The translations under genes and the position numbers were made by a program. The notes below the pieces were generated by a model, which had not been told where the DNA came from, ran no database searches, and saw nothing but the letters and a program-made list of their open reading frames with translations. A stretch of 64,000 nt of DNA from an uncultured Bacteriovoracaceae bacterium (GTDB taxonomy: Bacteria; Bdellovibrionota; Bacteriovoracia; Bacteriovoracales; Bacteriovoracaceae): assembly GCA_964012805.1 (NCBI GenBank), contig CAXGUD010000013.1, positions 1-64,000 of the forward strand, written 5' to 3'. This document shows, in pieces, positions 24,863-64,000 of this stretch. Each line of letters starts with the position of its first letter. The stretch's first letter is position 1.

Positions 24863-26146
24863 TTATATTGGTGAACTAAGGTCTACGTTACCTATAGATT
24901 TGTAATTTGATGTCTTTTGCTCCATATAAAAACGAATTTTAGCAAGAGGATTAAAGGTGTAGCCATCTTTCCCTCTCAAAATGTATTTTCTTTTTGAGTC
25001 CTTCTTATCATCGGAACACTTCGGCTCTATCAGCTTTCTCAAGCGGCTAACACTTGTATAAATCAACTTATCGTGAATAAGAGGGTTATACTCATCTTTC
25101 CATATCGCTTTAGCCAAGCCTTCTTTGTCGTAGTAAATGCCGGAGTTTTTTGCAAGTAAGAACAAAATCTCAAGAAGAACGAAACGGTGTTTAAAATCTA
25201 TGACTCCAAGAGACTGTTCATGAACCTTCCTATTCGTTCTATCAAGAAAGATGTCTACGTTACTGTCATTAATATCCTGAACTTCATTTTTAACAAGACC
25301 TTCTAATCTTTTGAAAACACGGGGGTCTGAAAAGCTCTGGGCCAGATTACAAAATAAGAGGGACTTATCAAACTGCCCCATCATCTTGTATGCCATACCT
25401 TTTCCTAGAAGAACGTAGCCATGAAGATTCCAGCACTTTTTATCTAAAAGGTTTGCTGTAGCATTATCGAAGGCAGCTAAGGCTTCCTCAAACCTATCCA
25501 TTTCAAAATAAATTTTGCCAAGGTAAAACTCCATTGCCCCTGCTAAATAAAACTTGTTTATTATTTTTAACAATTGTTTTAGTTGTTGCAGGTAATTGAT
25601 CGCAGTTTCATAGTCTTTTGTTTGATAATAGTTCGTTGCTAGCGCCAAAAGACATTTCGCAAGTAGCTCTGGCTCATTTTCCTGCTTTGACTTTTGATAG
25701 GAAATTAAAAAGGCTTCTCTAGCTTCATCAAAAGCTCCACCATAATTTTTAACAAGGCCAAAATTAAAGTAATACTCAGCATTTAAGGAGTCCAACCTAA
25801 CTTTTAGGTCTAAAACGACCTCTTCAGCTTTGGTGATCCACTTCTCAGCTTCAAAGTTTTCAAGTCTTTCCGAGCATATTCTGATTAAGAAACCCAAAAT
25901 CTTGAGTTTGGAAAAATGCTCTTCACCTTCATTGAAATATGCTAAGGATTTTTTAAAGTTTTCTTCGGACTGAGACAAGTCAGCCTTGTCGTAATGAATT
26001 TTGCCTAGTTGATAAAAGGCCCTTGCATAGTCATAAGGCTCATAACTTTGGTTTATAGCAATACTATCGAGGGTAGAACCTTCTCCTATTAAGAAAGGGA
26101 GGGAAGTTGATGGTTCTATACCATACTGATTCGTTTCATTCCCCAT
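24863..26146 (-). CDS. TPR-repeat protein with C-terminal OmpR-type winged-helix domain
   Basis: Repeated YQLGKIHY / YLGKIYFEM TPR-like helices; C-terminal LAKAIW...IYTSVSRLRKLIE...GKDGYTF. Confidence 0.8.
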   Translation of the reverse strand: MGNETNQYGIEPSTSLPFLIGEGSTLDSIAINQSYEPYDYARAFYQLGKIHYDKADLSQSEENFKKSLAYFNEGEEHFSKLKILGFLIRICSERLENFEAEKWITKAEEVVLDLKVRLDSLNAEYYFNFGLVKNYGGAFDEAREAFLISYQKSKQENEPELLAKCLLALATNYYQTKDYETAINYLQQLKQLLKIINKFYLAGAMEFYLGKIYFEMDRFEEALAAFDNATANLLDKKCWNLHGYVLLGKGMAYKMMGQFDKSLLFCNLAQSFSDPRVFKRLEGLVKNEVQDINDSNVDIFLDRTNRKVHEQSLGVIDFKHRFVLLEILFLLAKNSGIYYDKEGLAKAIWKDEYNPLIHDKLIYTSVSRLRKLIEPKCSDDKKDSKRKYILRGKDGYTFNPLAKIRFYMEQKTSNYKSIGNVDLSSPI

Positions 26147-26300
26147 TTCTAAAGCTCCATTTTCGCCGGATTAAACTTAAAAGCACTCCGCATTCAGAAC
26201 ATTTATCGGATTTCCCTTAAATCCTGAGCGTATGTATAGCACGTAGCCTTTATAAAGCCAAACTTTCTGGCCAATACTGAAAAAAATATTCGCTAACTCA

Positions 26301-26329
26301 TTGATTTATAAATTTACCGTTGGTAGTCT
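26301..26329 (+). promoter_or_regulatory. Putative sigma70 promoter of thrS
   Basis: TTGATT-N17-TAGTCT with extended TG. Confidence 0.55.
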
Positions 26330-26436
26330 GTGCGGCCAAAAGTAGAAGCAATTGGGCTCCCAAATGAGGTGTGATCCTCTACTTAATGGGAACTTCAAAC
26401 AAACACATTTGAATATCTTAAAAAGGAAATTGTCTT

Positions 26437-28191
26437 ATGGCCAAATACGATCTAGACACACTGAGGCATTCAACAGCGCACCTAATGGCCCAAGCGATTT
26501 CTCGACTCTTCCCTGAGCACCATGTTCAATTTGGAGTCGGCCCCGTTATTGACAATGGGTTTTATTACGATGTGGAAACTGATTATAGGATTAAAGACGA
26601 AGACCTTCCTAAGATAGAAGCAAAAATGCTTGAAATTATTGAGGAAAAACTTCCCATAGAGAGGAAAGTCTTATCTAAAGATGAAGCTCTCGATTATTTT
26701 GAAAAAGAGAAGCAACATCTGAAAGTCGAGCTTATAAGTGGGTTTGACCCAGAAGAAGAAATTTCATGCTATAGCCAAGGTGAATTCATAGACCTTTGTC
26801 GAGGACCACACGTTGAAACGACTGGTGATTTACCCAAATATTTCAAACTTCTTCATACAGCTGGAGCTTACTGGAAAGGAAGTTCAGACCGCCAAATGCT
26901 CCAAAGAATCTATGCCGCCTGCTTTAATGACAAAAAAGCTCTCAAAAAACACTTAAACTTCCTCGAGGAAGCCAAGAAGCGGGACCACAGAAAACTGGGA
27001 AAAGAACTGGAGCTTTTCCACTTCGAACCTGTTGCACCAGGATCGCCTTTCTTTCTTCCTAAAGGTGCCTTTATTTACAATGAGCTAGTCGAATTCATGA
27101 GACGTATTTACAAAAGATATAACTACAAAGAGGTTATAACGCCTCAAGTTTTATCAAGTGACCTTTGGCACACGAGTGGGCACTACGCTAATTACAAAGA
27201 TGACATGTTTTTCACAAATATTGAAAAGGGTGAATTTGCTGTCAAACCCATGAATTGTCCTTGTCACATGCTCATGTTCAAGCACTTCCGCTATAGCTAT
27301 AGGGACTTACCTCTTCGCTATGCTGACTTTGGAAGGCTCCATAGAAATGAAAAGTCGGGAACACTTGCAGGCCTCACAAGAGTAAGAACGTTCTGCCAAG
27401 ACGACGCACATATCTTCATTCCTCTTGAAGACATTCAAGAAGAGATATTGACTCTTCTTGATATGTTTTTTGTCGTTTATAAACACTTCGGCTTTACCGA
27501 CATAAAAATAAACCTTTCAACAAGGCCAGAAAAAAAGGTCGGTGATGACGCAACTTGGGATAAAGCTGAAAACGCTTTAAAAGAGGCCCTTGAAAAAAGT
27601 GGCCACCCATTTGCCATTAAAGAAGGTGATGGAGCGTTCTACGGCCCTAAAATTGATGTAGAGATTTCAGATGCTCTTCAACGTTACTATCAATTAGGAA
27701 CCATCCAACTAGATTTTCAACTTCCTGACCGCTTTGGACTTAAGTTTACAAATAAAAAAGGTGAGGAAGAAAGGCCTGTTGTTATTCACAGGGCACTCTT
27801 GGGTTCACTAGAAAGATTCTTTGGAATTTACCTTGAGCACACAGGTGGTGCTTACCCCTTCTGGCTCTCTCCAACTCAAGTAACTATAGTTCCAATTAAT
27901 AATGAGAACCATCTTGAGTATTGCCAAAAAGTGGCCAAAGACTTAACTAATGAGGGGATAAGGGTTCACATTGACGATAGAAATGAATCTATGGGCTTTA
28001 AGACTAGGCAAATTCAAAAGTCAAAGACTCCTTTCATGATGGTGTTTGGAGATAAAGAAATAGAGGAAGAAACTGTCAGCCTAAGGGCCTATGGCCAAAA
28101 GGGCTCTCAAAAGCTGACACTTAAAGAAGCTTTTGAAAAATTTAAAACCCTGGATGAAGAAAAAACTCCTAAGGAATTAAGGGAGAGCTAA
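26437..28191 (+). CDS. thrS: Threonine-tRNA ligase (short form lacking the N-terminal TGS domain)
   Basis: RHSTAHLMA, DLCRGPH, RDHRKLG, KPMNCP, GAFYGPKID, IHRALLGS. Confidence 0.97.
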   Translation: MAKYDLDTLRHSTAHLMAQAISRLFPEHHVQFGVGPVIDNGFYYDVETDYRIKDEDLPKIEAKMLEIIEEKLPIERKVLSKDEALDYFEKEKQHLKVELISGFDPEEEISCYSQGEFIDLCRGPHVETTGDLPKYFKLLHTAGAYWKGSSDRQMLQRIYAACFNDKKALKKHLNFLEEAKKRDHRKLGKELELFHFEPVAPGSPFFLPKGAFIYNELVEFMRRIYKRYNYKEVITPQVLSSDLWHTSGHYANYKDDMFFTNIEKGEFAVKPMNCPCHMLMFKHFRYSYRDLPLRYADFGRLHRNEKSGTLAGLTRVRTFCQDDAHIFIPLEDIQEEILTLLDMFFVVYKHFGFTDIKINLSTRPEKKVGDDATWDKAENALKEALEKSGHPFAIKEGDGAFYGPKIDVEISDALQRYYQLGTIQLDFQLPDRFGLKFTNKKGEEERPVVIHRALLGSLERFFGIYLEHTGGAYPFWLSPTQVTIVPINNENHLEYCQKVAKDLTNEGIRVHIDDRNESMGFKTRQIQKSKTPFMMVFGDKEIEEETVSLRAYGQKGSQKLTLKEAFEKFKTLDEEKTPKELRES

Positions 28192-29187
28192 ATGGAAAAA
28201 AAAAATATAGTACTTCTTTGTGGAGGTGGCTTTAGTGAGCACGATATCTCACTAGTTTCAGCTGCTTTTTTAAAAGACCAACTTTCTTCTCTTAAAACCT
28301 ATAACCTCTTTTTTGTAGAAATCACAAAAGAGGGACAATGGATTCATGAAGAAACTGGTCCTTGTGAAATTGGCTTAGATGGTAAACTGAAACTCTTAAA
28401 AGAAAATAAAGAAGTTCCGGTCGATTATACAATTCCTTGCCTTCATGGACCTCCTGGCGAAAATGGTGATATCCAAAGTTTTTTTGAGCTGGCGAATATA
28501 AGTTACTTGGGTGCTGGCCCTGAAGCTAGTCAAAATTGTTTTAATAAAATATCGACAAAACTATGGTTTAACGCTCATTCAATTCCAAATACTCCTTTTG
28601 TTTTTCTTAAAAACTCCTCTAAAAAACAAGTTGAGTCGGCCCAAGAAGCCTTTGATCAATGGGGCTCCGTGTACGTTAAGGCCTCTTCTCAAGGCTCATC
28701 CATTGGCTGTTACTTTGTAAAAGACAAAAAAGATCTTGAGAGCAAGATAAAAGAAGCCTTCAAACTTTCTCCCTATGTTTTATTAGAAAAACCAATCGTA
28801 GGAAGAGAGTTAGAAATTTCAGTTTATGAATGGGAAGGAAAACTGATTGCTACGGATCCTGCGGAAATAGAAACACCTTCCTCCTCTTTTTACTCTTTTG
28901 AAGAAAAATATAGTCAGGACAGTAAAACAGAAACCCATATAAAAGCTAGAAATATAAACGATGAAATAAAAAAGAAAATGAAGGAAACGGCCCTTAAAGC
29001 CTTTACCCTTTTAAAAATTAAAGACCTTGCACGCGTGGATTTTTTCCTCAGTAAGGACAAAGAAATTTATATTAATGAAATAAATACTTTCCCAGGTATG
29101 ACACCCATTTCCCTCTTCCCAAAAATGATGGAAGCCAATGGCCATTCATTCTCTAAATTTCTTAAACAAAAAATTGACGGTCGGTGA
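28192..29187 (+). CDS. ddl: D-alanine-D-alanine ligase
   Basis: GGGFSEHDISL, LHGPPGENG, GSSIG, FYSFEEKY, NEINTFPG. Confidence 0.94.
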   Translation: MEKKNIVLLCGGGFSEHDISLVSAAFLKDQLSSLKTYNLFFVEITKEGQWIHEETGPCEIGLDGKLKLLKENKEVPVDYTIPCLHGPPGENGDIQSFFELANISYLGAGPEASQNCFNKISTKLWFNAHSIPNTPFVFLKNSSKKQVESAQEAFDQWGSVYVKASSQGSSIGCYFVKDKKDLESKIKEAFKLSPYVLLEKPIVGRELEISVYEWEGKLIATDPAEIETPSSSFYSFEEKYSQDSKTETHIKARNINDEIKKKMKETALKAFTLLKIKDLARVDFFLSKDKEIYINEINTFPGMTPISLFPKMMEANGHSFSKFLKQKIDGR

Positions 29188-29280
29188 AAATCACCCACCT
29201 GTCAGTTTGAGCAGTTACAATAATAATTTAAGGTTTTAATTAATTCAGCGAAAAAGATAATTAAGTAAAAAGGATCGTTT

Positions 29281-32200
29281 ATGAAGCAGAAGCACTTTCC
29301 CATTATAAACTCTAAAGATGAATCTCATGCTCAAGAAAAATTAAAAGGTTTTTACGAAAAAAATATGATTCCAGCAGAGAAGAAAAACTACTTAACCAAC
29401 CTAAAAGAATCTGAAGGCCCTTTTTTGGCCGTTGAAAGTGCTGATGGAGATAAGCCTCATTTTCTTATGGACGCTGCTTCTCAAATAGCTACATTGGGAC
29501 TCGGTTTCAACCCTCAAGTTTTCTTTGGAGCTTCCCATCACTTAGATGCTTGGCTTAACCAAGAGCAAGGGCGTTTTGGAGAGCTTAGACAAACTTATGA
29601 GTCTTTTCTAAAAAGAAAACTCGGTTGGCAAACTCTTTCAACAACATTCTGCCATTCAGGAGCCGAGGCCAATGAAACGGCCCTTGGTTATTGTTATAAA
29701 TCAAGAAAAAGAGAATCGGCCAATAGAGTCCTTGCTTTTGAAGGATCTTTTCATGGAAGGATGATGGTGACCCTCTCAGCAACCTGGAACCCAGCTAAGA
29801 GAGAGCCCTTTGAGTGGGAAGATTTTAAAGCTGTTTACTCACCATTTCCAGACTCACCGACTGGTGCCATCAAAGCTGATTTTCCTGACGGTTGGAGAAA
29901 GCTTTGGGATCAAGCTCCTTTAAAAGACTGGTCTGTGCCTAAAGAGCTTAAAGAAAAGGATCCTCTCCTTCTTAAAGAAATAGAATGCCTTAATGTTGTA
30001 AGAAATCAACTAAATGAAGGTAAAATATTTGCTATCATTGCCGAACCAATGCAGTGTGAAGGTGGTGACCGCTACGGAACAGACCGTTTTTTTACGGCCC
30101 TTCTTTTGATGGCAAGAAGCTTTTCTGTCCCTGTTATTTTTGATGAAGTTCAAACGGGTTACCACTTAGGACGTGCCTTTTTCTGGCACTCTCAATTTGA
30201 CCTTAAAGATGAAAACGGTGACCTTCTAGCTCCTAACTATGTGACTATGGCAAAGAAAGCTCAAATTGGTGCCGTTATCTCTCACGACTCGTTTAAATTT
30301 AATGAAGAGTTCTCAACTCTTTCTGCCTATAGAGGTTACCACCATGCTATTTCTCTAGACCAATCAACTAAAAAGATTCTAGAGCTCGAAGAGTTTTCTC
30401 TTTCAAAGCTTTGCCAATATGCAGAAAAATACAGCGATCATATTGAAGGACCGAGAGGTCTAGGAATAAGCTTTGCTTTTGATTTCAAAAAGAAAGAACA
30501 AGTTTCAGAGTTTATTAAACGTAGGTTTCAATACGGCCTCCTATACTACCCCGCAGGAGATAAAACTCTTCGTTTCCGCCTTAACTTAAGTTTTACAAAA
30601 GAAGATATCACCTTTCTTTTTGATGCTCTTTCGGCAATTGCTGATGAAGTTTTTGAAGGCAAAGAACCTCAATTGCCAACGAAAGTTGAATCGAGAGATC
30701 GGAACACAAACGGAATATTTGAGTGGCAAAAGCTCCTTCTTTCAGAAAAGCTTAGAAACCTTCAAGACTCTAAGGCCTTAAACCAAGAAGAACTTTTTGG
30801 TGAAATTCAAAAATTAATGGGGCTTTCTGAAGATTTAAAATTAGTTAAAATAGACGGAAGTAACTTTTCCTCCTTAGAGCAAAAGATTCAAACACTTCAA
30901 GAAGAAGTTTACGAGCCAGCAAGAAGAACAGGCCTTGAAGTTTTTGAAAAGACCGCCAAAGATCCAAAAGGAATTTGTCTTGGAATTTTAAAAGACGAAG
31001 AGCTTCTTGGAATTTGTTTTTCTTCTCAAATGGGTAACTACCCTCTTGAAAGAGGGCTTAGAAGAGATCGTTCCTTTCATGACGAAAATTGTTTCTATAT
31101 GGTCGACACAACCATTTCATCGAAACTCCGTGGGGCCGGTTTAGGGAGAGACCTTAAATACGCTCTAACTCTTTTAGCACAAAACCAAGGGGTCATTGAA
31201 GTCAATGGAAGAAATAGAGACCAGATGGCCTCATCCATGCTTAATATTAATCTTTCGCTTGGTGGAGTTGAAAGGTTTTACATCGAAGAAGACTACCCTG
31301 ACTTTGAGCCTAATAGGGATGTGATCTATTATAGTGCTCCAACAAAATGGACATTACCACAACTTGAGCTCTCTCAAGCAATGTCCTCACCACTTGGCAT
31401 TTTTGACCTTTCTCCTGATTTTATAGAGGAGCAATTACCAAGTGCTGTTAATAAAGTTTGTCTTTCAAACTTTGTTGGTGAAAGGTTCTTGTCTCACGTA
31501 AAAGATATTTTTCAATTAGTTCCAGAAGAGTTGAGGCATGGCTATACAGCAAGTGGGCAGTCTGAATGTGTCGACAAATTAGTTAAAATTTTGTGGCATA
31601 AAATTAAAGAAAAAAGAACGGTTCATAAGATGATGACTTTTGATGGGCATTTCTTTGGAACAGGAAGTTTTCTTTCAAGATCCCTTTCTCTTCCTGAAGA
31701 AGCTTATTTTCCAGTAACAGTCATGGACAACCCTGAGTCTCATAACGAAGAAGACCTTCTTGAAAAAATAGAGCAAGAATTTGAAACAGGTGATTATTTG
31801 GCGGTTTGGATTGAACCACTCCTTCAAAAAACATTGAAGAGAGTAAGTGTTTCTTTCCTTAAGCAGTTAAAAAAGCTTTGTCAGAAGTTTGACCTTCCTC
31901 TTGTTTACAATGAAACAGCTTCACAGATGTATCGCTATAGTGATGACAACTATTTCCTCTCAAATGTTAGTGAGTTAAGACCCGACTGCGGTCTTGCCTA
32001 TATGGGTGGACAAGCGGCTTTTGTTTATTGCTCTGACGAGTATTTCTTAGAAAAACCTCTTATGATGATCAGTACTTGGGATGGGGATGAATTCTCTCTA
32101 GGTTGTTATCATAGGGCCATGACGATGATCGAAAAAGATCATGGAAAATTTAAAGAGTTAAGAAAGAACTTTGATAAGAAATTAAAAGAAGTTCTTGAAA

Positions 32201-32355
32201 AGTACCCAACCAATCATATTGAAATAGAAAACGGTGTTGGTTATTTCAAAGGGAAAATTCCTCATCAGTTGTCTCAATACCTAAACTCACATAAAGATGC
32301 GTATCTTGTTTGTCCATCAACAAGCTCGATGAGACGTTTTTTAGAGGAGTTTTAA
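29281..32355 (+). CDS. Fusion: class III aminotransferase (Lat/GABA-AT-like) + GNAT + degenerate class III aminotransferase
   Basis: SGAEANE, SFHGR, EPMQCEGGD, DEVQTG and MAKKAQ in the first domain; GNAT motif A SKLRGAGLG; second copy with SGQSECVD, EPLLQK, NETASQ and ISTWDGD. Confidence 0.88.
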   Translation: MKQKHFPIINSKDESHAQEKLKGFYEKNMIPAEKKNYLTNLKESEGPFLAVESADGDKPHFLMDAASQIATLGLGFNPQVFFGASHHLDAWLNQEQGRFGELRQTYESFLKRKLGWQTLSTTFCHSGAEANETALGYCYKSRKRESANRVLAFEGSFHGRMMVTLSATWNPAKREPFEWEDFKAVYSPFPDSPTGAIKADFPDGWRKLWDQAPLKDWSVPKELKEKDPLLLKEIECLNVVRNQLNEGKIFAIIAEPMQCEGGDRYGTDRFFTALLLMARSFSVPVIFDEVQTGYHLGRAFFWHSQFDLKDENGDLLAPNYVTMAKKAQIGAVISHDSFKFNEEFSTLSAYRGYHHAISLDQSTKKILELEEFSLSKLCQYAEKYSDHIEGPRGLGISFAFDFKKKEQVSEFIKRRFQYGLLYYPAGDKTLRFRLNLSFTKEDITFLFDALSAIADEVFEGKEPQLPTKVESRDRNTNGIFEWQKLLLSEKLRNLQDSKALNQEELFGEIQKLMGLSEDLKLVKIDGSNFSSLEQKIQTLQEEVYEPARRTGLEVFEKTAKDPKGICLGILKDEELLGICFSSQMGNYPLERGLRRDRSFHDENCFYMVDTTISSKLRGAGLGRDLKYALTLLAQNQGVIEVNGRNRDQMASSMLNINLSLGGVERFYIEEDYPDFEPNRDVIYYSAPTKWTLPQLELSQAMSSPLGIFDLSPDFIEEQLPSAVNKVCLSNFVGERFLSHVKDIFQLVPEELRHGYTASGQSECVDKLVKILWHKIKEKRTVHKMMTFDGHFFGTGSFLSRSLSLPEEAYFPVTVMDNPESHNEEDLLEKIEQEFETGDYLAVWIEPLLQKTLKRVSVSFLKQLKKLCQKFDLPLVYNETASQMYRYSDDNYFLSNVSELRPDCGLAYMGGQAAFVYCSDEYFLEKPLMMISTWDGDEFSLGCYHRAMTMIEKDHGKFKELRKNFDKKLKEVLEKYPTNHIEIENGVGYFKGKIPHQLSQYLNSHKDAYLVCPSTSSMRRFLEEF

Positions 32356-32421
32356 AAGCTCCTCTAATTTAAAGAGATTTGGAAATCTTAGTGATGAGTG
32401 CTAGCGAAAAGGAATGAGAGA

Positions 32422-33549
32422 GTGACTGAGAAGAATTACGATTTTCCTTATATAAAATATGAGGCCAATAAATCGGCGAAAGAGTGGGGCCAGGCACATG
32501 GTGAAAGTTTTAGAGAAGGAATTAAAGAACTTGTCGAAATTAGAAAAAAGCTCATGCTTTCTAAGAACCCGGCCCTTAGAAGTCAGCTTAACCCTTTAGC
32601 AAAACTTCAATATGAGGCCACCAAGAAGTTTGCTCCTGAAATTACAAAAGAAATTGAAGGGATTGCTGAAGGGGCGAATATTGACCTAACCGAAGTTGTG
32701 ATCCTTAATAACTACACAGACTTTAGGGACATCCAACTTCCAGATGAAGGCTGTTCAACCGTTCACGTTCAAACAAATAATCAAATCCTTTCTGGTCAAA
32801 CATGGGATATGCATGGATCAGCAAAGAGGTTTGTCAACGTCATCCACATACCAAAAACAGGTCATACACCAGAGTCCGTTGTCTTTTCTCTCATTGGTTG
32901 CGTTGGAATGATGGGAATCAACACTTATAAAAACTTAATTGGTGTTAATAATATTAATACGGCCAATGCTCAAGCGGGACTTGTTTGGCCTGCTCTTGTC
33001 AGAAAGGTTTTAAAAGAAACGAACCTTTCAGGAATGAGGCAAAAGCTGATTGAAGCTCCCGTCACTTCTGGCCACAATTACCTTATTTCTTCCCTTGAAG
33101 GTGGAGAGCATTGGGAAATTACACCAAGACTTCAAGAAAAAGTTGCTGAAATGACAAAAGAGCAGTCTGGTGGAGTCTTTCACACCAACCATTGCCTTGG
33201 CCAAAAGGTTCAAGAGGAAGAAGACACTTCTTCCATTAGTTCAACCACCCATGGACGGTACGAACTATTAGGTAAAAAGGTTCCTAATGTAGATTCTTTT
33301 GAAAAGTTGAAATCACTTTTAATGGATCATGAAGGTTATCCAAAATCAATTTGTTCTCACTTTCAAAGTGGCGCCCAAGACCCTTCTATGACTTGTGGTG
33401 GAGGGATTGCTGACTTTATTCATGATGACTATTACTTTTGGAGAGGCTGTCCTGAATACGATGATAACTTTAGAAGTTATCAGTTTTCTCTAGAAGGAAG
33501 TGAAGGAGAAAAAACCTTTGTTCTCAAAGAGTCTAAAAACTCTCTCTAA
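32422..33549 (+). CDS. Peptidase C45 family Ntn-hydrolase/acyltransferase (IAT/Tan-like)
   Basis: WGQAHGE, EIEGIAEGA, autoproteolytic DEG|CST, GQTWD, HTNH; probable GTG start at 32422. Confidence 0.85.
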   Translation: MTEKNYDFPYIKYEANKSAKEWGQAHGESFREGIKELVEIRKKLMLSKNPALRSQLNPLAKLQYEATKKFAPEITKEIEGIAEGANIDLTEVVILNNYTDFRDIQLPDEGCSTVHVQTNNQILSGQTWDMHGSAKRFVNVIHIPKTGHTPESVVFSLIGCVGMMGINTYKNLIGVNNINTANAQAGLVWPALVRKVLKETNLSGMRQKLIEAPVTSGHNYLISSLEGGEHWEITPRLQEKVAEMTKEQSGGVFHTNHCLGQKVQEEEDTSSISSTTHGRYELLGKKVPNVDSFEKLKSLLMDHEGYPKSICSHFQSGAQDPSMTCGGGIADFIHDDYYFWRGCPEYDDNFRSYQFSLEGSEGEKTFVLKESKNSL

Positions 33550-33615
33550 ATTAAAAACTCAACCACTCTAAGAAGCTACGCCTTTTTAGAGTTTTTAAAA
33601 AAGGAATGGTAATCC

Positions 33616-34830
33616 ATGGCAGACTATCCCTATTTTTTTACTTGGGCCAATCAATCAAGCCCCACAAAAATAGAGTTTGAAAGTAATGAAGATCATTTTT
33701 TTGTTTTAAAAAATGGTCACAAAGTTTACGACCTCTCTTCCATAAGCTTTCAAGCCTCCTTTGGTTTAAATAATGAAAAAATTAAAGAGGCCATTAAAAA
33801 GCAATTAGACTCTTTTTCTGTTGTATCGCCGAAAGCCATCTTCCCTTTAAAAGATCAAGCTACTTACAAACTCCTTAGCCATTTGGATGGATATAAAAGA
33901 CAAATCAATGCATTGGATGGAAAAGTCTTTTATACACTCTCCGGTGCTGAAAGTGTTGAAAACGCTTTAAAGATGGCAAGACAGATAAAGAAGAAAAACG
34001 TCGTTCTTTGCCGAGAAAGGTCATATCATGGTGCCTCTCTTGGTGCTTTAAGTGTCACAGGTGACTGGAGGAATCAACCTCATCAAACCGTTGATGAATG
34101 GACGACCCGAATTCCTGAACCTCACAATGATCCTTTTTTAACTCAAACTGAACTCATCATAAAAGATGTGGGGCCAGAAAATATTGCGGCTTTTTGCCTT
34201 GAAACTATAACCGGTGGAAATGGAGTTATCATTCCTCCAGAAAGTTGGTGGCAGGGAATCCAAAGGCTTTGTGATCAATATAATATTTTTCTTATCTTAG
34301 ATGAAGTTATTTGCGGTTTTCAAAGAACTGGCAGGCGCTTTGGTTTTCATAATTACCCTTTTTTAAAACCACACTTTATCTGTATGTCTAAGGGAATCAC
34401 GGGCGGTTACATCCCTTTTGGAGCCGTTTGGGCCAATAGAGACATTGTCGAATTTTATAATGAAAACGTACTTTCTTGCGGGCTCACAAGTTACGCCCAT
34501 CCCTTAGGTCTCGCTGCCATGGATGCCATTTGTGACATTTTAGCCGATGGCCATTTTTTAGAAAATATAGTTAATTTAAAAAAAATGATGAAAGGCTATT
34601 TTTTAAAATGGGAAGAGCTGCCGAACGTTAAAGAAATACGGACTATTGGCCTTTTGGCTGCCATTGAATTTACGAGTGATGTGACCCTCGACTTTAACTA
34701 TTTTTTAGAAAGAGGAGTTCACCTAGTTGTTCAACCTCAGACACTTATTCTTTCTCCCGCTCTTACTTTTAACAAAATGGATTTACAGGCGGCTTTAGAA
34801 ACATTAAATAAGGCCTTGAGAGAACTTTAA
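33616..34830 (+). CDS. Class III omega-aminotransferase (beta-alanine/taurine/GABA-pyruvate type)
   Basis: SGAESVENALK, SYHG, ETITGGNG, DEVICGFQRTG, SKGITGGY, GLTSYAHP. Confidence 0.88.
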   Translation: MADYPYFFTWANQSSPTKIEFESNEDHFFVLKNGHKVYDLSSISFQASFGLNNEKIKEAIKKQLDSFSVVSPKAIFPLKDQATYKLLSHLDGYKRQINALDGKVFYTLSGAESVENALKMARQIKKKNVVLCRERSYHGASLGALSVTGDWRNQPHQTVDEWTTRIPEPHNDPFLTQTELIIKDVGPENIAAFCLETITGGNGVIIPPESWWQGIQRLCDQYNIFLILDEVICGFQRTGRRFGFHNYPFLKPHFICMSKGITGGYIPFGAVWANRDIVEFYNENVLSCGLTSYAHPLGLAAMDAICDILADGHFLENIVNLKKMMKGYFLKWEELPNVKEIRTIGLLAAIEFTSDVTLDFNYFLERGVHLVVQPQTLILSPALTFNKMDLQAALETLNKALREL

Positions 34831-34863
34831 ACTTTTAGCTTAGAATAAATAAAAGGAAAAAAA

Positions 34864-35568
34864 ATGACTCAACAAAGTTCCAAAGTTTTTCAAAGTGCTA
34901 AAGATGCACTTCACGATATAAAATCCGGAAGCGCTCTTATGAGTGGAGGCTTTGGTCTCTGCGGTATTGCAGAAAATTGTATTGATGCCTTAAGTGAGAT
35001 GGATATTAAGGACCTTACGGTTATTTCTAATAATATTGGAAACTCAGGACGGGGGCTCGTTAAAATTTTAATTCAGCATAAAATTAAAAAGGCTTATTGC
35101 AGTTATGTTGGGGGAAACCCTGACCTTGAAAAGCAAATGCTTGCTAAAGAAATTGAGGTTGAACTTGTCCCTCAAGGAACCTTTAGTGAAAGGATTAGGG
35201 CCGCTGGCATGGGAATAAGAGGTTTTTATACGCCAACAGGTGCTGGAACACTTGTTGCTGAGGGAAAAGAAGAGAGAACGTTTGACCGTCCTTGCATTTT
35301 AGAACTCCCTCTGCACGCTGACTTTGCCATTATCAAGGCCCAGAAAGCGGACCCTTACGGGAACCTCTGGTTTAAAGAAACCGCAAGAAACTTTTCTCCA
35401 CTTATGGCGATGGCCTCAAAAATTACTGTTGTTGAAGTGGAAGAGCTCGTTGAGCTCGGTGACATTCCACCAGAAGACGTTCACGTGGCGGGCATTTTTG
35501 TCCAAAGAATTTTTAAAGGGTCAAACTACAAAAACGATATTGAATTTTTAAAAGTGAAGGGAGAATAA
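34864..35568 (+). CDS. scoA: 3-oxoacid CoA-transferase subunit A
   Basis: GGFGLCG, ISNN, SYVGGN, PQGTFSERIRAAG, ARNFSPLMA. Confidence 0.9.
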   Translation: MTQQSSKVFQSAKDALHDIKSGSALMSGGFGLCGIAENCIDALSEMDIKDLTVISNNIGNSGRGLVKILIQHKIKKAYCSYVGGNPDLEKQMLAKEIEVELVPQGTFSERIRAAGMGIRGFYTPTGAGTLVAEGKEERTFDRPCILELPLHADFAIIKAQKADPYGNLWFKETARNFSPLMAMASKITVVEVEELVELGDIPPEDVHVAGIFVQRIFKGSNYKNDIEFLKVKGE

Positions 35569-35570
35569 AG

Positions 35571-36206
35571 ATGACTTGGTCAAAAGAACAAATGGCGGAT
35601 AAAGTAATTTCTCTCTTTGAAAAAGATACAAGTGTAAACCTAGGAATAGGTTTACCAACCTTGATAGCTGAAAGAATTCCAAAAGAAAGCAGAGTCATGA
35701 TTCATTCAGAAAATGGCGTCCTTGGTGTTGAGGGAAGACCTGATGAAAAAAATGTATCGCCGACTCTTATCAATGCAGGAAAAGAAACCATTGCTGTAGG
35801 CAAGGGTGCTAGTTACTTTGACAGTGCTTTAAGTTTTGGAATGATTCGAGGGGGTCACTTAGATTACTGTGTGCTCGGTGGAATGGAAGTCGATGTTGAA
35901 GGAAACCTCGCTAACTGGATGATTCCAGGAAAAAAAGTCACAGGAATGGGCGGTGCCATGGACCTTGTTCATGGAGCAAAAACAATTATCGTGATGATGA
36001 CCCACTTTAATAAAAACGGCAGTCCCAAAATGTTAAAAAGGTGTGGGCTCCCTTTAACAGGACTTAATGTTGTAGACATAGTGGTAACAGATAAAGGGCT
36101 TTTTTCTATTAAAGAAAACCGCTTTGAGGTTATTGAACTTGCTGCTGATGTCTCTAAAGAATCTTTAGGTATTAGTGAGGAACTATTAATTGAAAGACAT
36201 AAATAA
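35571..36206 (+). CDS. scoB: 3-oxoacid CoA-transferase subunit B
   Basis: VNLGIGLPT, catalytic SENG, MIRGGH, LANW, GMGGAMDL. Confidence 0.9.
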   Translation: MTWSKEQMADKVISLFEKDTSVNLGIGLPTLIAERIPKESRVMIHSENGVLGVEGRPDEKNVSPTLINAGKETIAVGKGASYFDSALSFGMIRGGHLDYCVLGGMEVDVEGNLANWMIPGKKVTGMGGAMDLVHGAKTIIVMMTHFNKNGSPKMLKRCGLPLTGLNVVDIVVTDKGLFSIKENRFEVIELAADVSKESLGISEELLIERHK

Positions 36207-36216
36207 CTAGTAGATA

Positions 36217-36252
36217 AAAAAAGGGGGCCTCCTGCAAAGGCCCCCTCTTTTT
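36217..36252 (+). terminator. Rho-independent terminator closing the aminotransferase operon
   Basis: AGGGGGCCT/AGGCCCCCT stem plus T tract. Confidence 0.85.
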
Positions 36253-36459
36253 GGCTTCCTGCCTAATCTTGTAAGCAACTTCCTATCACCTACACTAATA
36301 GGTTAACCTAAATTTAGCGTAGGCAAAGAAAAAAAATAAAGTGGTAAAGTTTTCCTCGGTGTGTTTAAATTGACTTCTTTGATTGGAAAAACTCAATTTG
36401 AACGTACATCCTTTAATTTTTTAAACTCAAAAGTTATAATTCATTGAAATTAATGGAGA

Positions 36460-37836
36460 ATGTGGATAATAATGAAATCAAAACTCTTCCCTTGGTTAAT
36501 ATTAATTTACTTAACTAATTTTGGCTGCACACAAATAATAAAACCTGCCAATAAAGCTACAGTTTCTTCATTATCAAAAAAAGAGAATGAAAAAACTTAC
36601 TGTATAGTAAAGAAAAATAAATCTATCAATTTCCTATCTGGATCAGAAGAAAACTCTAAGTCTTTTCATCAACTTCTTACAAAAATAAAAAGGCAGCGAA
36701 TTAAGCTCTCCTTTGTAGAAAAAGCTGCTCTATGGCTTCTTTACCAGATAAATGCAAACCCAGACGTTTGCTCACCTTCATCTCGCCTTCAAATTATTTT
36801 CGCCCACAAAGATTCAGAACCGATCTATTGGGACTTTCACCATCCATTTGCAAAAAACTTAAAATCAAAAAATTATTATCCCTACCTAGACGGTATCGAT
36901 TTTATGCTCAAGAATTTCAAGTCAAAAAAGAGTCTTATTCAGTTAAGTTCCTTGCTAGACAGAAACCTTCCCAAAAGATTTAAAGTAACAAAAAGCCTTG
37001 AAAAGATAGTTAATATGAAGAGAACCGAGCTTTATAAATTAAAGCCATTTAAAAACTCTTTTTTTAAAGAGGCTGAACCTCTCAAAAAAAATGAGAGTTT
37101 TCCTAAACTTCAATTTAAAAAGCTTGTAATGAATTACAGAAAAAGCCAAAAAATAAATACGAATAAGAAATCTTTTGGAAAACACCTTTTAAAAAAAGCG
37201 TCTATCTCAAAACTCCTGTTTCCATTCAAAGTTGAAGGTGACAATTTCCCCCCCCCTATTAGATGTAATATAGACCTTTCTCTCTATAAGCATTCTATAT
37301 TCCTCATAAACTCTGAGGAAGTATCATCTAGCATCTTTGGATTTGAACAAAATAATTCTTACTTTCTTGCTGCGAGTTCTCAATTACTTTCAGGACCTAT
37401 TTCACCAATTTTTGGAACATTTCTCATGAGGGGTGCGCCCCCCCAAAAGACACCTACTATGTGCCTTATAAAAAATAGAAATAAGGAATCCAACATTGCG
37501 TTAGTTTCTTATAAAGGGAGGGACCCTGGTCAACATATTTACAACCTTTTTCAAAAAGGGATTCATCAATCAAATTCACTCATGGACCTTGATATTTTTT
37601 TAAAAGGTCCTAGAAAAATTTTTTTGGTAAACCCCTTAAGAGTTCTTATTGAACCATTGGATAAAAACACAAACGACTTGTTGCGTTTTAGAAAAAGAAA
37701 TATTCCTTTATATCCTGTTAGAAACCTAGGATACATCCTGGCACACGGAAAATTTAACCTAAAAAAGCAAAATGGTTTCATTCTAGATAGAAGATCTCAG
37801 GAGAAATTATCATGCCTCGAGAAAAAATCTCCCTAA
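36460..37836 (+). CDS. Hypothetical basic lipoprotein
   Basis: Long ORF; lipobox-like NFGC; start may be 36472. Confidence 0.65.
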   Translation: MWIIMKSKLFPWLILIYLTNFGCTQIIKPANKATVSSLSKKENEKTYCIVKKNKSINFLSGSEENSKSFHQLLTKIKRQRIKLSFVEKAALWLLYQINANPDVCSPSSRLQIIFAHKDSEPIYWDFHHPFAKNLKSKNYYPYLDGIDFMLKNFKSKKSLIQLSSLLDRNLPKRFKVTKSLEKIVNMKRTELYKLKPFKNSFFKEAEPLKKNESFPKLQFKKLVMNYRKSQKINTNKKSFGKHLLKKASISKLLFPFKVEGDNFPPPIRCNIDLSLYKHSIFLINSEEVSSSIFGFEQNNSYFLAASSQLLSGPISPIFGTFLMRGAPPQKTPTMCLIKNRNKESNIALVSYKGRDPGQHIYNLFQKGIHQSNSLMDLDIFLKGPRKIFLVNPLRVLIEPLDKNTNDLLRFRKRNIPLYPVRNLGYILAHGKFNLKKQNGFILDRRSQEKLSCLEKKSP

Positions 37837-38081
37837 TTGAAATCTATGGTAGTGCTTCTAAAAAACTCCTTATTAGACGTGAGCTGTCAATTCAAGACCT
37901 AAACATCAACCTTATGTCCTTCCTTCAAAATCTAGGACTCCCTATAGCGTCATCATGCCAAGGAGAAGGTATTTGCCGCTTATGCATTGTGAATGAGAGC
38001 GTGATTAGCTGTGGTATTTCAGTAAAAGACCTTCCTTTTGACAAAAAAGGCGTAAGAAAAGTGAGCATTGGCTATTTGTGA
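37812..38081 (+). CDS. 2Fe-2S ferredoxin-like protein
   Basis: SSCQGEGICRLC...SC (Cx5Cx2C...C). Confidence 0.7.
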   Translation: MPREKISLIEIYGSASKKLLIRRELSIQDLNINLMSFLQNLGLPIASSCQGEGICRLCIVNESVISCGISVKDLPFDKKGVRKVSIGYL

Positions 38082-59717: not shown

Positions 59718-62699
59718 TTAGCTATTATATTGATCATTACCAAACAAGGAAGCTTCCCTAAGAGAAACGTCATAGACCTGTACTTGAAGGGCTCCGAGGA
59801 TATTTTCAACCTTCCCCTTAATCATAAAGGCCCTACCTGAATACAGAAGGTCACGGAAGGAAATATATGCCGGTGGGAAAAAAACGGCTTCTATAAGACC
59901 CACCTCATCTGAAAAAGTCGCAAAACACATTTCTTCACCTTTCTTGGTCCAAACGACTTTAGCTGTTACATAGACACCAAAAAGAATCACGACTTCATTA
60001 ATAAAAGCAGCAAGCTCAACACTTCGAACTCTTTTTTTATTTTTTAATGCATCTGGGTAAAGTGCCCAAACAGGGAAACTAACAGGAGATTTTAGACAAT
60101 CCATTTCCCACTTAATCAATTGCTCTGGGGAAAACTCTTTGAAGACCCTAGAGGGGATTTTTCCTTTAAACCTTCCCTTCTTTTGAACAGCAAACCATTC
60201 GTAGACCCGCCACATTTGAGAACAAAAGCTATCGCCTTCCTTAAGTGAAGAAAAGGCCCGTGATTTTACAAAAATCTTGGCCTCTTCAAAAGAAGGCATA
60301 ATCCTAAAAAGAAAATTGTCAATTGAAGAAAAAAGCCCTTTATCCCGACGCTCTTCAATAATTCTCTTTTTAAGTCCTTCAGTAAGACCACTTAACTGCT
60401 GAAGACCTACTCTAATCGAGCCTCCATGGCCCTGAAACCCCTCTTCACTAAGGTTTATATCAGGAAGTAAAACCTTCAAATTGAGCCGCCTGGACTCTTC
60501 CAAATAAGTCGAAAGAGAATAAAAACCACCACCATGAGACATAACCGCACTCATAAATTCAGCAGGAAAATGAGATTTTAAGTAGCAAGATTTAAAAGAG
60601 ACCATTGCATAGCTTGCCGAGTGGGCCTTACAAAATGAATAACCTGAAAAACTCAAAATCATCTTCCACACTTGCTCTAGAACCGACCTGCTAACACCTT
60701 TTTTCCTGCCCCCCTCAAAAAACATTCTTTCAAAATCCAGCAGTTTTTTCCTTTTATCTTTTTTATCAAGAACCTTCCTAAGACCATTTCCTTCACTCAT
60801 ACTAAAGCCTGCCAAAACCATGGCAGTTTGAGAAACCTGTTCTTGATAAATCATAATTCCATACGTCTCTTCCAAAATAGGCTTTAAAAGAGGGTGAAAG
60901 TGAGAATAAGACTTTCCATGGAGCCTCTTCACAAATTCAAGAGCATAATCATTGGCAGCGGGCCTAATAATTGAGGATGCCATCACAATATGCTCAAATT
61001 TGCTCGATTTCATTCTTTGAAGAAGTAGTCTTGAGGCTGGGGACTCTATGTAAAAAACACCTAGTGTCCCCCCCGACTCTATAAGCTTTCGGGCCTTAGA
61101 ATCAAGTAGAGGATCTAACCCATCATAAGTCAGCTTACCTCTAGGACCTCCATCCATTTCGATGCGCTTATTAACAGCACTTATTGTGTCTCGAATGACT
61201 GCAAGGGAACGGTTACCTAAAAGATCAATCTTCACAAGGCCAAATTTTTTTACCTGCCTTTTTTCCCAATGAACAATAGGCAAACCTTTCTGCGTTTTTT
61301 CTACAGGAACATAGGATGAAATTGGTTTAGGTGTAATCACAACCCCCCCGGGATGAACCGAAAGGTGTCTAAAATGACTTTGAAGACGCTGTGCCTGAAA
61401 CAAAATCGTCCTCCAAAGTGAGGAATCTTGAACTTTAGGAAACCGGCTTATCTGGTCATTAATTTCATCGAGAGGAACACCATAAACCTTTGCAACCTCT
61501 CTAATCGCAGAAGCTCCCTGGAGAGAATTGTGATTGGAAACCATCGCTGAATGACGAGGGTATTTTTGAAAAACATAATTTAAAATAGCGTCCCTTTCAT
61601 CCCAGGGAAAATCTATATCAATATCTGGAGGATCCTCTCGGTCTGGATTAAGAAAACGCTCGAAGTAAAGGTTGTGGCGGATGGGATCAACATGGGTAAT
61701 TCCTAAAAGAAAACTCACTAAACTCGCAGCTGCTGAACCACGCCCGCAGGTTCTAGGGCAATGCCTGACAATATCTTCAACGACTAAGAAGTATGAACTA
61801 AAACCCTTTTTAGAAATAACACCAAGTTCATGCTCAAGCCTCTCTATAAGCCGAGACTGAAACTGGTTATGAAGCGTCGGTGTTTCTTGTCCTCCATACC
61901 TTCGTTTAATACCTTCGAAGCTTTTCTTTCTTAAAACATCATCACATTTCTGCTTACTCCAATCGTTAAAGCTTGGAAAAATCGTTTTTCCTTCACAAAG
62001 ATTAAAATGGCGACACCGGTTAAAAATTTTATATGTATTCTCTATTATCTCTGGATAGGCTTGAAAAAAGCTTGATACTTCATTCGGATTCATGAGCCGG
62101 CAACTTTTCTTAAAAAAAGAAAGATCCACTTGATCTAATGTTTTATTTTGATGAATCGCTTGACCTAAACGGATAAAAAAATCATCTCCCTCTTCGATAA
62201 AACGTGCGCGAGTGCTCCCAACAAAAGGAATTTGTTGATCTCGGCACCAAAGAACATCTTTATGTTGAGAGAAGCCTGGAGAAAACTCGTAGTATAAAGT
62301 CCCCTCTTCTTTTCTTTTTTTGAGAGTAATAAGTAAAGACCGGCAATCGGTCATAATGACAGTATTTGAGCCCATCGAAATCAAATGGTTCTTAAGCTTT
62401 TCGCCAGTAAAAGATTCATGCTTCAAGTCTGTTAAAAGATAACACAAGTGCTCATAACCTTTTTTATTCGCACATAAGATAACAAGCCTATAGCTTGACC
62501 AAACGACCTCTGCCCCAATAAGAGGAGAAAGCCCCATTTTTCTGGCCTCTTCATTGAAGTGAACAGCACCATAAAGAGCATTCGTGTCCGTAAGTGCAAT
62601 CCCTGGCAATTGGTTGTCCTTGGCCCAACGGCACAATTCTTGAGGAGAATTCAACCCGGCCAGAGGGGAGTAAAAAGAGTGAACGTGAAGAGGAATCAA
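59718..62699 (-). CDS. dnaE2: Error-prone DNA polymerase III alpha (DnaE2/ImuC)
   Basis: PHP domain (HVHSFYS), GRGSAAAS, FERFL, PPDIDIDF, YSFCKAHS and OB fold; coupled to imuB. Confidence 0.88.
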   Translation of the reverse strand: MIPLHVHSFYSPLAGLNSPQELCRWAKDNQLPGIALTDTNALYGAVHFNEEARKMGLSPLIGAEVVWSSYRLVILCANKKGYEHLCYLLTDLKHESFTGEKLKNHLISMGSNTVIMTDCRSLLITLKKRKEEGTLYYEFSPGFSQHKDVLWCRDQQIPFVGSTRARFIEEGDDFFIRLGQAIHQNKTLDQVDLSFFKKSCRLMNPNEVSSFFQAYPEIIENTYKIFNRCRHFNLCEGKTIFPSFNDWSKQKCDDVLRKKSFEGIKRRYGGQETPTLHNQFQSRLIERLEHELGVISKKGFSSYFLVVEDIVRHCPRTCGRGSAAASLVSFLLGITHVDPIRHNLYFERFLNPDREDPPDIDIDFPWDERDAILNYVFQKYPRHSAMVSNHNSLQGASAIREVAKVYGVPLDEINDQISRFPKVQDSSLWRTILFQAQRLQSHFRHLSVHPGGVVITPKPISSYVPVEKTQKGLPIVHWEKRQVKKFGLVKIDLLGNRSLAVIRDTISAVNKRIEMDGGPRGKLTYDGLDPLLDSKARKLIESGGTLGVFYIESPASRLLLQRMKSSKFEHIVMASSIIRPAANDYALEFVKRLHGKSYSHFHPLLKPILEETYGIMIYQEQVSQTAMVLAGFSMSEGNGLRKVLDKKDKRKKLLDFERMFFEGGRKKGVSRSVLEQVWKMILSFSGYSFCKAHSASYAMVSFKSCYLKSHFPAEFMSAVMSHGGGFYSLSTYLEESRRLNLKVLLPDINLSEEGFQGHGGSIRVGLQQLSGLTEGLKKRIIEERRDKGLFSSIDNFLFRIMPSFEEAKIFVKSRAFSSLKEGDSFCSQMWRVYEWFAVQKKGRFKGKIPSRVFKEFSPEQLIKWEMDCLKSPVSFPVWALYPDALKNKKRVRSVELAAFINEVVILFGVYVTAKVVWTKKGEEMCFATFSDEVGLIEAVFFPPAYISFRDLLYSGRAFMIKGKVENILGALQVQVYDVSLREASLFGNDQYNS

Positions 62700-63874
62700 A
62701 ACTCTCTCCCAAGGACAAGAGAGGTTTCTCCAAAGCGGCGCCTGACATCTTCCATAGCATCAAGAATGTCATCTCTTTTTTTCTTATTAACTTCACGAAA
62801 AAGTGGTAACTGAACTTCCTCTTGAACAAGCTCACAAAACTCCAAGGCCATATAATGAATCATTGTTCTTCTTTTTATCAATTGATGGAGGAGGTCTATT
62901 GCCACATTCGACAAAATATCCATATCGAGGCTTAATGCTTTAAGGGCCTTTTTCTTGTGAACAAATTTATAATCACTATAGCGTATAAAAAGCTGAAGAG
63001 AGCCAGGATACTTACCATACCCTCTTAAAAAAAGAACACCACGGGACACGAGCCCCAAAAGAGCTTTTTGAATGCAAATGAGGTCATTTGTCTCTTCTTC
63101 CAAATAGAGCCCTTCATAATGGCCCTCCTTTCTTGAGCTTTTTTGAATAGGGCTTAAGTCAACCCCCTTGGCCATTTCCAAAATAGGGAACGCATCATCT
63201 CCAAAGGCCACCTGTAAATAAAAGTGGTCAAGCTCCACAATATCCCTATTTGTATGGATATTAAGCTCATCACAAAGTGAGCTTTTACTCTTAGAGCTCC
63301 TCTTGAGTATTTTTTGAATAGGAGGGAGTACACTAACTGGTAAAGGGGCAAAGAAATCCTTCTCCCCTCCTCTTTTAATAAAACAAATACCGTGATCCAT
63401 TTCCTTCGTCTGAGCGGCGACTTTACTGACAAGTTTATTTGTTGCACCACCAAAAGATCCCTCTAAGTGAAATGAATCCAAAATACTCCTTTGAAGGTCT
63501 AGGGCCTTATCTGGAAGGTGGGGATAAAGGTGATCAAAGCCAGTCATATCTAAAAAAAAGCGTCCATGCCCTTCCACTTCATAAAGAGGAGTCGTCTTGG
63601 CAATAACTTTTTCCTCTAGGTCTTTGGCCACTCGAGAGTAGAGCTCTGGCCTTGGAGGGAGAACAACAAGATCTCTGCACACCTTTTTTGCATGGGCCAT
63701 GGGCATCCCTGGCAGAATCCCTGCCGACCTCGCTTCATCGGAAGACTCCCATACGGGCGCTCGGCCACTTTGAGGAGGAGCAATAACTAAAGGCCTTGAC
63801 CTAAGGTTTGGTGATAACACCCTTTCAACGGCAATAGGAAACCTCGTTATATTGACATACAACACTTTTCTCAC
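62696..63874 (-). CDS. imuB: Inactive Y-family polymerase ImuB-like
   Basis: Y-family motifs (GILPGMP, NKLVSKVA) with catalytic DxD and SIDE replaced by NITRF and GHGR; beta-clamp motif QLPLF. Confidence 0.82.
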   Translation of the reverse strand: MRKVLYVNITRFPIAVERVLSPNLRSRPLVIAPPQSGRAPVWESSDEARSAGILPGMPMAHAKKVCRDLVVLPPRPELYSRVAKDLEEKVIAKTTPLYEVEGHGRFFLDMTGFDHLYPHLPDKALDLQRSILDSFHLEGSFGGATNKLVSKVAAQTKEMDHGICFIKRGGEKDFFAPLPVSVLPPIQKILKRSSKSKSSLCDELNIHTNRDIVELDHFYLQVAFGDDAFPILEMAKGVDLSPIQKSSRKEGHYEGLYLEEETNDLICIQKALLGLVSRGVLFLRGYGKYPGSLQLFIRYSDYKFVHKKKALKALSLDMDILSNVAIDLLHQLIKRRTMIHYMALEFCELVQEEVQLPLFREVNKKKRDDILDAMEDVRRRFGETSLVLGREF

Positions 63875-63942
63875 AAGAGAAGAACCTCTTTTTTCAATGT
63901 TTTAACTTATATCTAACAGACAACGAAAGACTTAAGTCTTTC

Positions 63943-64000
63943 TTAATAATGCCTCAAAAGACCCACAACGATCCCCTGTATTTCAAAGGGACCGCCCCTT
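63943..64000 (-). CDS. lexA: C-terminus of LexA/S24 family repressor (partial)
   Basis: Frame from 63999 reads RGGPFEIQGIVVGLLRHY*, a typical LexA C-terminal strand, upstream of imuB-dnaE2. Confidence 0.75.
   Translation of the reverse strand, partial: RGGPFEIQGIVVGLLRHY

Follow-up and report, generated by a model that had tools for sequence, protein, structure and literature searches.

Which compound is acted on by the five-gene cluster at positions 29281-36206 (plus strand) of the 64,000-nucleotide window analysed here, a stretch of contig CAXGUD010000013.1 from an uncultured Bacteriovoracaceae bacterium, and in what order do its enzymes work? The five open reading frames (ORFs) encode a fusion of aminotransferase and GNAT acyltransferase domains, a C45-family hydrolase, a second aminotransferase and the two subunits of a 3-oxoacid CoA-transferase. 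A first-pass annotation had read them as an acylate-transaminate-deacylate pathway for an amine or amino acid and left the substrate open. Our analysis supports that chemical logic and its agreement with gene order, and the genomic evidence, namely linkage and co-inheritance with the aminomutase KamA, now favors beta-lysine. The locus is a conserved, uncharacterised catabolic operon with beta-lysine as its likely substrate.

We propose that the cluster degrades L-beta-lysine, supplied by a KamA encoded in trans, via 3-aminoadipate and 3-oxoadipate; all the substrates and the step order are inferred, and we lean modestly towards this route as a whole. In the proposed sequence, the GNAT domain would acylate beta-lysine at N3, and the fused aminotransferase would carry out epsilon-transamination of N3-acyl-beta-lysine to a semialdehyde, which an AstD-like dehydrogenase would oxidise to N-acyl-3-aminoadipate. 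The ORF2 C45 enzyme would deacylate this product to 3-aminoadipate, ORF3 would transaminate 3-aminoadipate to 3-oxoadipate, ORF4 and ORF5 would form 3-oxoadipyl-CoA, and a PcaF-like thiolase encoded in trans would release succinyl-CoA and acetyl-CoA. Beta-lysine carries two amines, and a degradation route has to remove each of them. Acylation at N3 would make the three fused activities consecutive and let the remaining steps follow gene order. Since beta-lysine is the beta-homologue of ornithine, the first four steps would run parallel to the succinylornithine half of the arginine succinyltransferase (AST) pathway, and an AstD-clade dehydrogenase would fit because the proposed aldehyde is a one-carbon homologue of the AstD substrate. 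A fuller version of the proposal, to which we give an even chance, is a B12-independent pathway from lysine through beta-lysine, N-succinyl-3-aminoadipate and 3-aminoadipate to 3-oxoadipate, in which KamA is joined to a beta-ketoadipate exit; this pathway would replace the fermentation route in predatory bacteria, and one polypeptide, a dehydrogenase-aminotransferase-GNAT-pseudo-aminotransferase chain as long as about 1,700 residues, would run it with a single composite pyridoxal phosphate (PLP) site. Our literature searches, with most subscription literature outside their reach, found neither a route from beta-lysine to 3-aminoadipate nor this fusion, and the passage through 3-aminoadipate and 3-oxoadipate is apparently undescribed.

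The identity of the substrate rests on physical linkage to kamA, on co-occurrence with KamA in two phyla, and on mutual exclusion with KamD (lysine 5,6-aminomutase), the known consumer of beta-lysine; together these make beta-lysine the likely substrate, a conclusion we hold with good confidence. In two Pirellulaceae loci, L056 and L106, kamA is the next gene after scoA, and in L106 an IclR regulator and a saccharopine-pathway gene also precede the cluster; in another genome (G309) kamA ends 6 bases upstream of the dehydrogenase-fusion gene. Across 151 genomes of the source's class, each at least 90% complete (the class sample), a KamA orthologue with at least 54% identity is present in 69 of the 76 genomes with the fusion and in 4 of the 75 others; by genus, the figures are 23 of 26 with the fusion versus 3 of 33 without. 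Related genomes are not independent and such counts overstate significance, so we give counts rather than probabilities. Weaker KamA-like matches, at about 30% identity, are found with and without the fusion, and some match exists in 133 of the 151 genomes. Three of the four genomes that have KamA without the fusion (G106, G107 and G110) carry KamD; KamD is missing from the source genome (G000) and from G005 and G040.

The same pattern appears in a Myxococcota sample of 151 genomes, where 16 genomes encode the fusion, 58 a KamA of this clade and 50 KamD (scored by lysine 5,6-aminomutase alpha): KamA accompanies the fusion in 15 of its 16 genomes and KamD in none. The 58 KamA genomes divide into 15 with the fusion, 34 with KamD and 9 lacking both, so that 49 encode one of the two routes; the nine (G242, G247, G248, G261, G263, G266, G286, G287 and G306) may use a third route for beta-lysine. 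All ten distant fusion genomes that we checked encode either this KamA clade (four) or a classical KamA just below the TIGR03820 cut-off (six). The KamA orthologue of the source genome lies at C2:12895-14247 and scores high enough for TIGR00238, the wider KamA family. A copy 69% identical to it, in G106, sits inside a kamA-kdd-(unassigned gene)-kamC-kamD-kamE operon, and because this close orthologue belongs to a lysine fermentation operon, we assign the clade as lysine 2,3-aminomutase.

Gene order is conserved well beyond the source genome. We assembled 68 loci, taken from the best 80 of 542 matches in a genome scan, from Bdellovibrionota, Myxococcota and Planctomycetota, some of them probably from genomes also in the class sample. 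Neighborhood co-occurrence had been set beforehand as a test of the annotated operon, and the cluster passes: among the 43 loci whose downstream sequence extends for 5.2 kb or more, the C45 gene is found in 39, an ORF3 orthologue in 33, ScoA (ORF4) in 34, ScoB (ORF5) in 28, and all four in 27. A dehydrogenase lies just upstream of the fusion or is joined to it in 29 of the 68 loci, 21 of these being full-length fused forms, and a thiolase adjoins the cluster in 4. In 3 loci a glutaconate-CoA-transferase-type pair stands in for ScoAB; CatIJ-type 3-oxoadipate transferases resemble GctAB.

Patterns of presence and loss divide the cluster in two. Within the class sample the fusion is encoded by 76 genomes and the C45 enzyme by 75, never without the fusion, while ORF3 and the operon-type ScoA occupy an identical set of 75 genomes; fusion and C45 form one module (module 1), ORF3 and operon-type ScoA a second. 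Operon-type ScoA proteins share 71-85% identity, whereas no other copy in this sample exceeds 57%, and in a ScoA tree of 66 rows a branch with 100/99 support splits 12 generic copies from 54 cluster-linked ones. This branch and the 75 genomes shared with ORF3 rule out that ScoAB is an unrelated housekeeping neighbor. In 12 loci (L056, L071, L082, L085, L090, L091, L106, L156, L157 and L159-L161) the cluster retains the operon-type scoA, whereas scoB is absent, displaced or inverted, a hint that specificity lies with the A subunit. The Planctomycetota fusions (L056, L096 and L106) group with Bacteriovoracaceae-type sequences (FastTree support 0.93), which may point to transfer.

What kind of enzyme is the fusion? 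ORF1 (29281..32355, plus strand; 1024 amino acids) had been annotated as aminotransferase-GNAT-aminotransferase; that domain order stands, and the implied pair of working aminotransferases does not. A family scan returns Aminotran_3 and a weak GNAT match, and solved structures cover at most the first 461 residues. Our alignment comprises 190 proteins, each 990 residues or longer, drawn from the matches listed (120 of 298 and 150 of 339), among which the named homologs come mostly from Bacteriovorax and Halobacteriovorax. The N-terminal domain (residues 1-462; 29281..30666) has the PLP lysine, DEVQ aspartate, FHGR motif and fold (Z 38) of a class III aminotransferase. It keeps K325 in 187 of 190 rows, D288 in all 190 and R160, the carboxylate-binding arginine of LAT/ArgD-type enzymes, in 188, with E260 and R431 also conserved. 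Its structural neighbors ArgD, LAT and AstC are tied at Z 37-38, and ORF1 scores 106 bits with TIGR03251 (L-lysine 6-transaminase), below the cut-off of 520.8.

The C-terminal 330 residues (residues 696-1024; 31366..32352) are homologous to this N-domain (hhalign probability 99.3). Here, MGGQ occupies the position of K325, NETA (N877) replaces DEVQ and with it the pyridine-binding aspartate, and a lysine occurs anywhere in positions 906-911 in just 3 of 190 rows, placing the domain outside class III; as judged from these residues it is catalytically dead. The S-T-W-G-G threonine loop is missing from every N-domain (0 of 190), an S-T-W-D-G loop is present in 186 of 190 C-domains, and T932 of the ISTWDGD loop matches LAT T330 by motif alignment. 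In AstC, the equivalent threonine loop reaches in from the partner protomer to bind the PLP phosphate (PMC3590144). Because the loop missing from the N-domain is kept in the lysine-less C-domain, and because the full chain is predicted as one confident unit (pLDDT 95.6, pTM 0.95), ORF1 is probably an intramolecular pseudo-dimer with a single active site, in which the C-domain would complete the site of the N-domain.

Between the two lies the GNAT domain (residues 515-694; 30823..31362), a predicted small-molecule N-acyltransferase with a clear fold match (Z 19.1, rmsd 2.7, 152 aligned) and an intact motif A (Q/R-x-x-G-x-G: Q/R617 in 162 of 190 rows, G620 in 162, G622 in 189), along with family-specific YEPAR and GRNR motifs. 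Searches of solved structures, NCBIfam, Atlas and folds returned no neighbor that names its substrate, the top structural neighbors being tied and of mixed function. Two full-length relatives (P0195 and P0203) have lost the catalytic lysine, FHGR and ISTWDG and kept the GNAT YE..R and GRNR motifs; to judge by these motifs, fusions of this type may persist as a GNAT alone.

The remaining ORFs would supply the later steps. ORF2 (32398..33549, plus strand; 383 amino acids), for which GTG at 32422 may be the true start, is a predicted deacylase: as annotated, it is a C45 Ntn-hydrolase with an intact cleavage site, scoring 156.5 bits with NF040521 (cut-off 85), keeping G118/C119 with C119 in 60 of 60 rows, and related to isopenicillin N acyltransferase. 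ORF3 (33616..34830, plus strand; 404 amino acids; PRK06062/taurine:2-oxoglutarate type) had been called a beta-alanine/GABA-type omega-transaminase. It is indeed a class III aminotransferase with an invariant K259, but its nearest solved relative is taurine:2-oxoglutarate aminotransferase (6JIX, E 1.5e-50); W10 and R152, kept in 51 of 51 rows, align with two specificity residues of taurine aminotransferase. ORF3, a predicted beta-amino-acid transaminase, most likely takes off the beta-amine to give a 3-oxo acid, rather than the freed omega-amine. ORF4 (34864..35568, plus strand; 234 amino acids) and ORF5 (35571..36206, plus strand; 211 amino acids) are subunits A and B of a 3-oxoacid CoA-transferase, as the first reading had it, scoring above the cut-offs of TIGR02429 and TIGR02428, families that span both PcaIJ and ScoAB; ORF5 has the SENG motif and E47, and ORF4 belongs to the operon-specific subtype, with residues N60, C79, D87 and L88.

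Partners that the pathway would need in trans had been listed for a genome search as kamA, an aldehyde dehydrogenase and a thiolase, and besides KamA the source genome encodes AstD-like dehydrogenases and a PcaF-like thiolase (496 bits, below the cut-off of 597) elsewhere. The cluster-linked dehydrogenase groups with E. coli AstD (support 0.947) and not GabD; AstD is the best family for all five dehydrogenases scanned, at 310-446 bits, below the TIGR03240 cut-off of 579. One AstD-like gene of the source genome belongs to an astC-astA-astD cluster (C19:73209-77246), a second lies at C36:6929-8494, AstE has a weak match only, and no AstB was found there with the E. coli query. Because the source genome has these separate ast genes, we reject a reading of the fusion as the arginine pathway.

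Several observations weigh against the beta-lysine route. The KamA of the source genome falls short of the TIGR03820 cut-off for lysine 2,3-aminomutase (281 versus 525 bits). Three genomes with the operon (G047, G048 and G055), in fragmented assemblies, yielded no KamA, and a fourth (G105) has only a distant KamA-like match of 36% identity. The N-domain of ORF1 matches GABA transaminases nearly as well as LAT, and an AstD-like gene is present in 140 of the 151 class genomes, an uninformative profile. At the exit, ORF4 is closest among solved structures to the acetoacetate-type SCOT (3CDK), and it is the sole 3-oxoacid CoA-transferase of its genome, where no acetoacetyl-CoA synthetase scores above cut-off; ORF4 and ORF5 may for these reasons also serve acetoacetate. 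Finally, the modules come apart. G040 lacks the fusion and C45 yet keeps ORF3, ScoAB and KamA, and the reverse is seen in G014, G061 and G062, where the fusion and C45 are intact but far apart (loci L021, L124, L125 and L184-L186) and no KamA, ORF3 or ScoAB was found. Because these three genomes retain it without KamA, module 1 can persist without beta-lysine, and it may act on another compound as well, for instance ornithine or lysine.

The best-surviving alternative keeps beta-lysine and changes the order of the steps. In it, the GNAT would form N6-acyl-beta-lysine, ORF3 would remove the 3-amine, ScoAB and thiolase would give 4-acylamidobutyryl-CoA and acetyl-CoA, the C45 enzyme would free 4-aminobutyrate, and the fused aminotransferase and a dehydrogenase would lead to succinate. 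This order uses all the enzymes, explains the KamA link equally well, and draws support from the GABA transaminase matches of the ORF1 N-domain, from a PRK07483/PRK06917-like aminotransferase beside a thiolase in 3 distant loci, from the retention of KamA, ORF3 and ScoAB alone in G040, and from the ability of C45 enzymes to handle acyl-CoA thioesters. However, the dehydrogenase clusters with AstD rather than GabD, GabD-like dehydrogenases are encoded elsewhere in the source genome, the fused GNAT, aminotransferase and dehydrogenase would catalyse the first and last steps instead of consecutive ones, and fusion and C45 in the 3 genomes without ORF3 and ScoAB would run a futile acylation cycle. 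We regard this order as unlikely, though more probable than the other alternatives.

Somewhat less probable still is a route acting on L-lysine or ornithine, in which N2-acylation, omega-transamination, oxidation and deacylation would yield 2-aminoadipate or glutamate, and the CoA-transferase would recycle the acyl group or activate glutarate. The closeness of the ORF1 N-domain to LAT, ArgD and AstC, the kinship of C45 to isopenicillin N acyltransferase, the saccharopine-pathway enzyme that precedes the fusion in L106, and the three KamA-less genomes that retain module 1 all fit such a route, as does a saccharopine dehydrogenase family gene found in none of the 76 fusion genomes, weak evidence given that only 4 of the 151 class genomes have one. 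It leaves the KamA linkage and KamD exclusion unexplained; ORF3 is of the taurine/beta type, the exit enzyme is a 3-oxoacid transferase, and the source genome already has separate astA, astC and astD genes with a weak astE. Turnover of L-lysine or ornithine may nonetheless be a side activity of module 1.

That the cluster makes an N-acyl-beta-amino acid as an osmolyte or secondary metabolite, or consists of two unrelated modules side by side, seems improbable: N-epsilon-acetyl-beta-lysine is a known compatible solute, and the two modules can be lost separately, yet gene order is conserved across three phyla, the irreversible dehydrogenase, the CoA-transferase and the thiolase indicate catabolism, the cluster excludes the catabolic KamD, and its neighbors in the loci examined include no recurring family of transporter or biosynthetic genes. 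A diamine or polyamine substrate (1,3-diaminopropane, putrescine or cadaverine, passing through beta-alanine, 4-aminobutyrate or 5-aminovalerate to semialdehydes) is very improbable: protect-oxidise-deprotect chemistry would work equally and ORF3 resembles taurine and beta-alanine transaminases, but the near-invariant R160 speaks against it, such a route needs no 3-oxoacid CoA-transferase and leaves the KamA link unexplained, and the source genome has another aminotransferase in a pyrimidine-degradation-like cluster (C47; gene identities by eye).

The layout of the locus is that of an operon, as annotated: the five ORFs are separated by gaps of 42, 66, 33 and 2 bases and closed by an intrinsic-terminator-like hairpin with a T run (36222..36252, plus strand; 9-bp stem, 7 G-C pairs). 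This hairpin has a folding energy of -21.3 kcal/mol (z -2.45) and is top-ranked among 16 terminator-like sites, where shuffles expect 9.4. Here, as elsewhere in Bacteriovoracaceae, thrS-ddl precede the cluster on the same strand, and in the window no terminator was found between them and it. At one such locus (L120; G040:C175) an ORF3 orthologue follows ddl directly, fusion and C45 being cleanly gone, and a second ORF3 copy lies on contig C70. A promoter-like match at 29199-29227 does no better than chance, and Rfam has no match within 26000-38000. Of three RNA runs, one yielded an exact contig of 167 bases, within ORF3, and no run bridged genes; we do not use them as evidence. At the far end of the window (59718-64000, minus strand), a by-eye reading finds ORFs resembling a LexA - Y-family/ImuB - DnaE2 mutagenesis cassette.

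If the N3 route from beta-lysine is correct, lysine degradation would gain a further route, and the natural metabolite 3-aminoadipate would have a pathway. The N3 route would also explain why many aerobic predators encode the radical-SAM enzyme KamA without B12-dependent downstream enzymes; the cluster is carried by several groups, mostly predatory bacteria. Cultured strains with recorded homologs include Halobacteriovorax marinus SJ (P0096) and Enhygromyxa salina SWB005 (L110). The proposal names candidates for a beta-lysine N3-acyltransferase, a C45 amino-acid deacylase and a 3-aminoadipate transaminase, all predicted, and a route from lysine to 3-oxoadipate could be useful to engineers of adipate and nylon monomers. 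Quite apart from the pathway, an asymmetric chain that holds both active-site halves of a class III aminotransferase would be unusual.

How does the cluster compare with known systems? It shares with the Pseudomonas B4 N6-acetyl-beta-lysine route, and with B. subtilis yodT-yodS-yodR-yodQ-yodP-kamA, which has the same enzyme classes, the set of KamA, GNAT, class III aminotransferase, CoA-transferase pair and deacylase. It differs from them in having two catalytic aminotransferases and an AstD-like dehydrogenase, a C45 deacylase in place of M20, and a GNAT fused to the omega-aminotransferase, and its predicted acylated amine and end products are others. For B. subtilis, a review (PMC6522883) presents the physiological role of KamA as undetermined and YodT as uncharacterised. 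The E. coli AST pathway (AstA/B/C/D/E) resembles the cluster in its N-acyl protection, ArgD/AstC-like omega-transamination, AstD-clade dehydrogenase and deacylation. Since no AstA, AstB or AstE family gene lies in the cluster, it is not a member of that pathway: AstA has no match in the scanned loci, the source genome's astA is on another contig among separate ast genes, a canonical GNAT and a C45 hydrolase serve instead, and the steps are fused and would continue via a beta-aminotransferase and a 3-oxoacid CoA-transferase. Lysine fermentation (kamA, kdd, kamBCDE) starts with the same KamA clade, whereas the proposed route lacks the B12-dependent 5,6-aminomutase, the two never occurring together in the 151 Myxococcota genomes. 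Unlike the lower beta-ketoadipate pathway (PcaIJ or CatIJ, PcaF), it would be fed from an amino acid, with an ORF4 that is SCOT-like in sequence. As an enzyme, ORF1 carries LAT-type active-site residues (M. tuberculosis Rv3290c) and recalls the glycine decarboxylase P-protein and the LCB1/LCB2 subunits of serine palmitoyltransferase, fold-type-I enzymes with one dead subunit, in that a non-catalytic partner would complete the active site. It stands apart from all of these in being a class III enzyme with both halves in one chain, joined by a GNAT linker.

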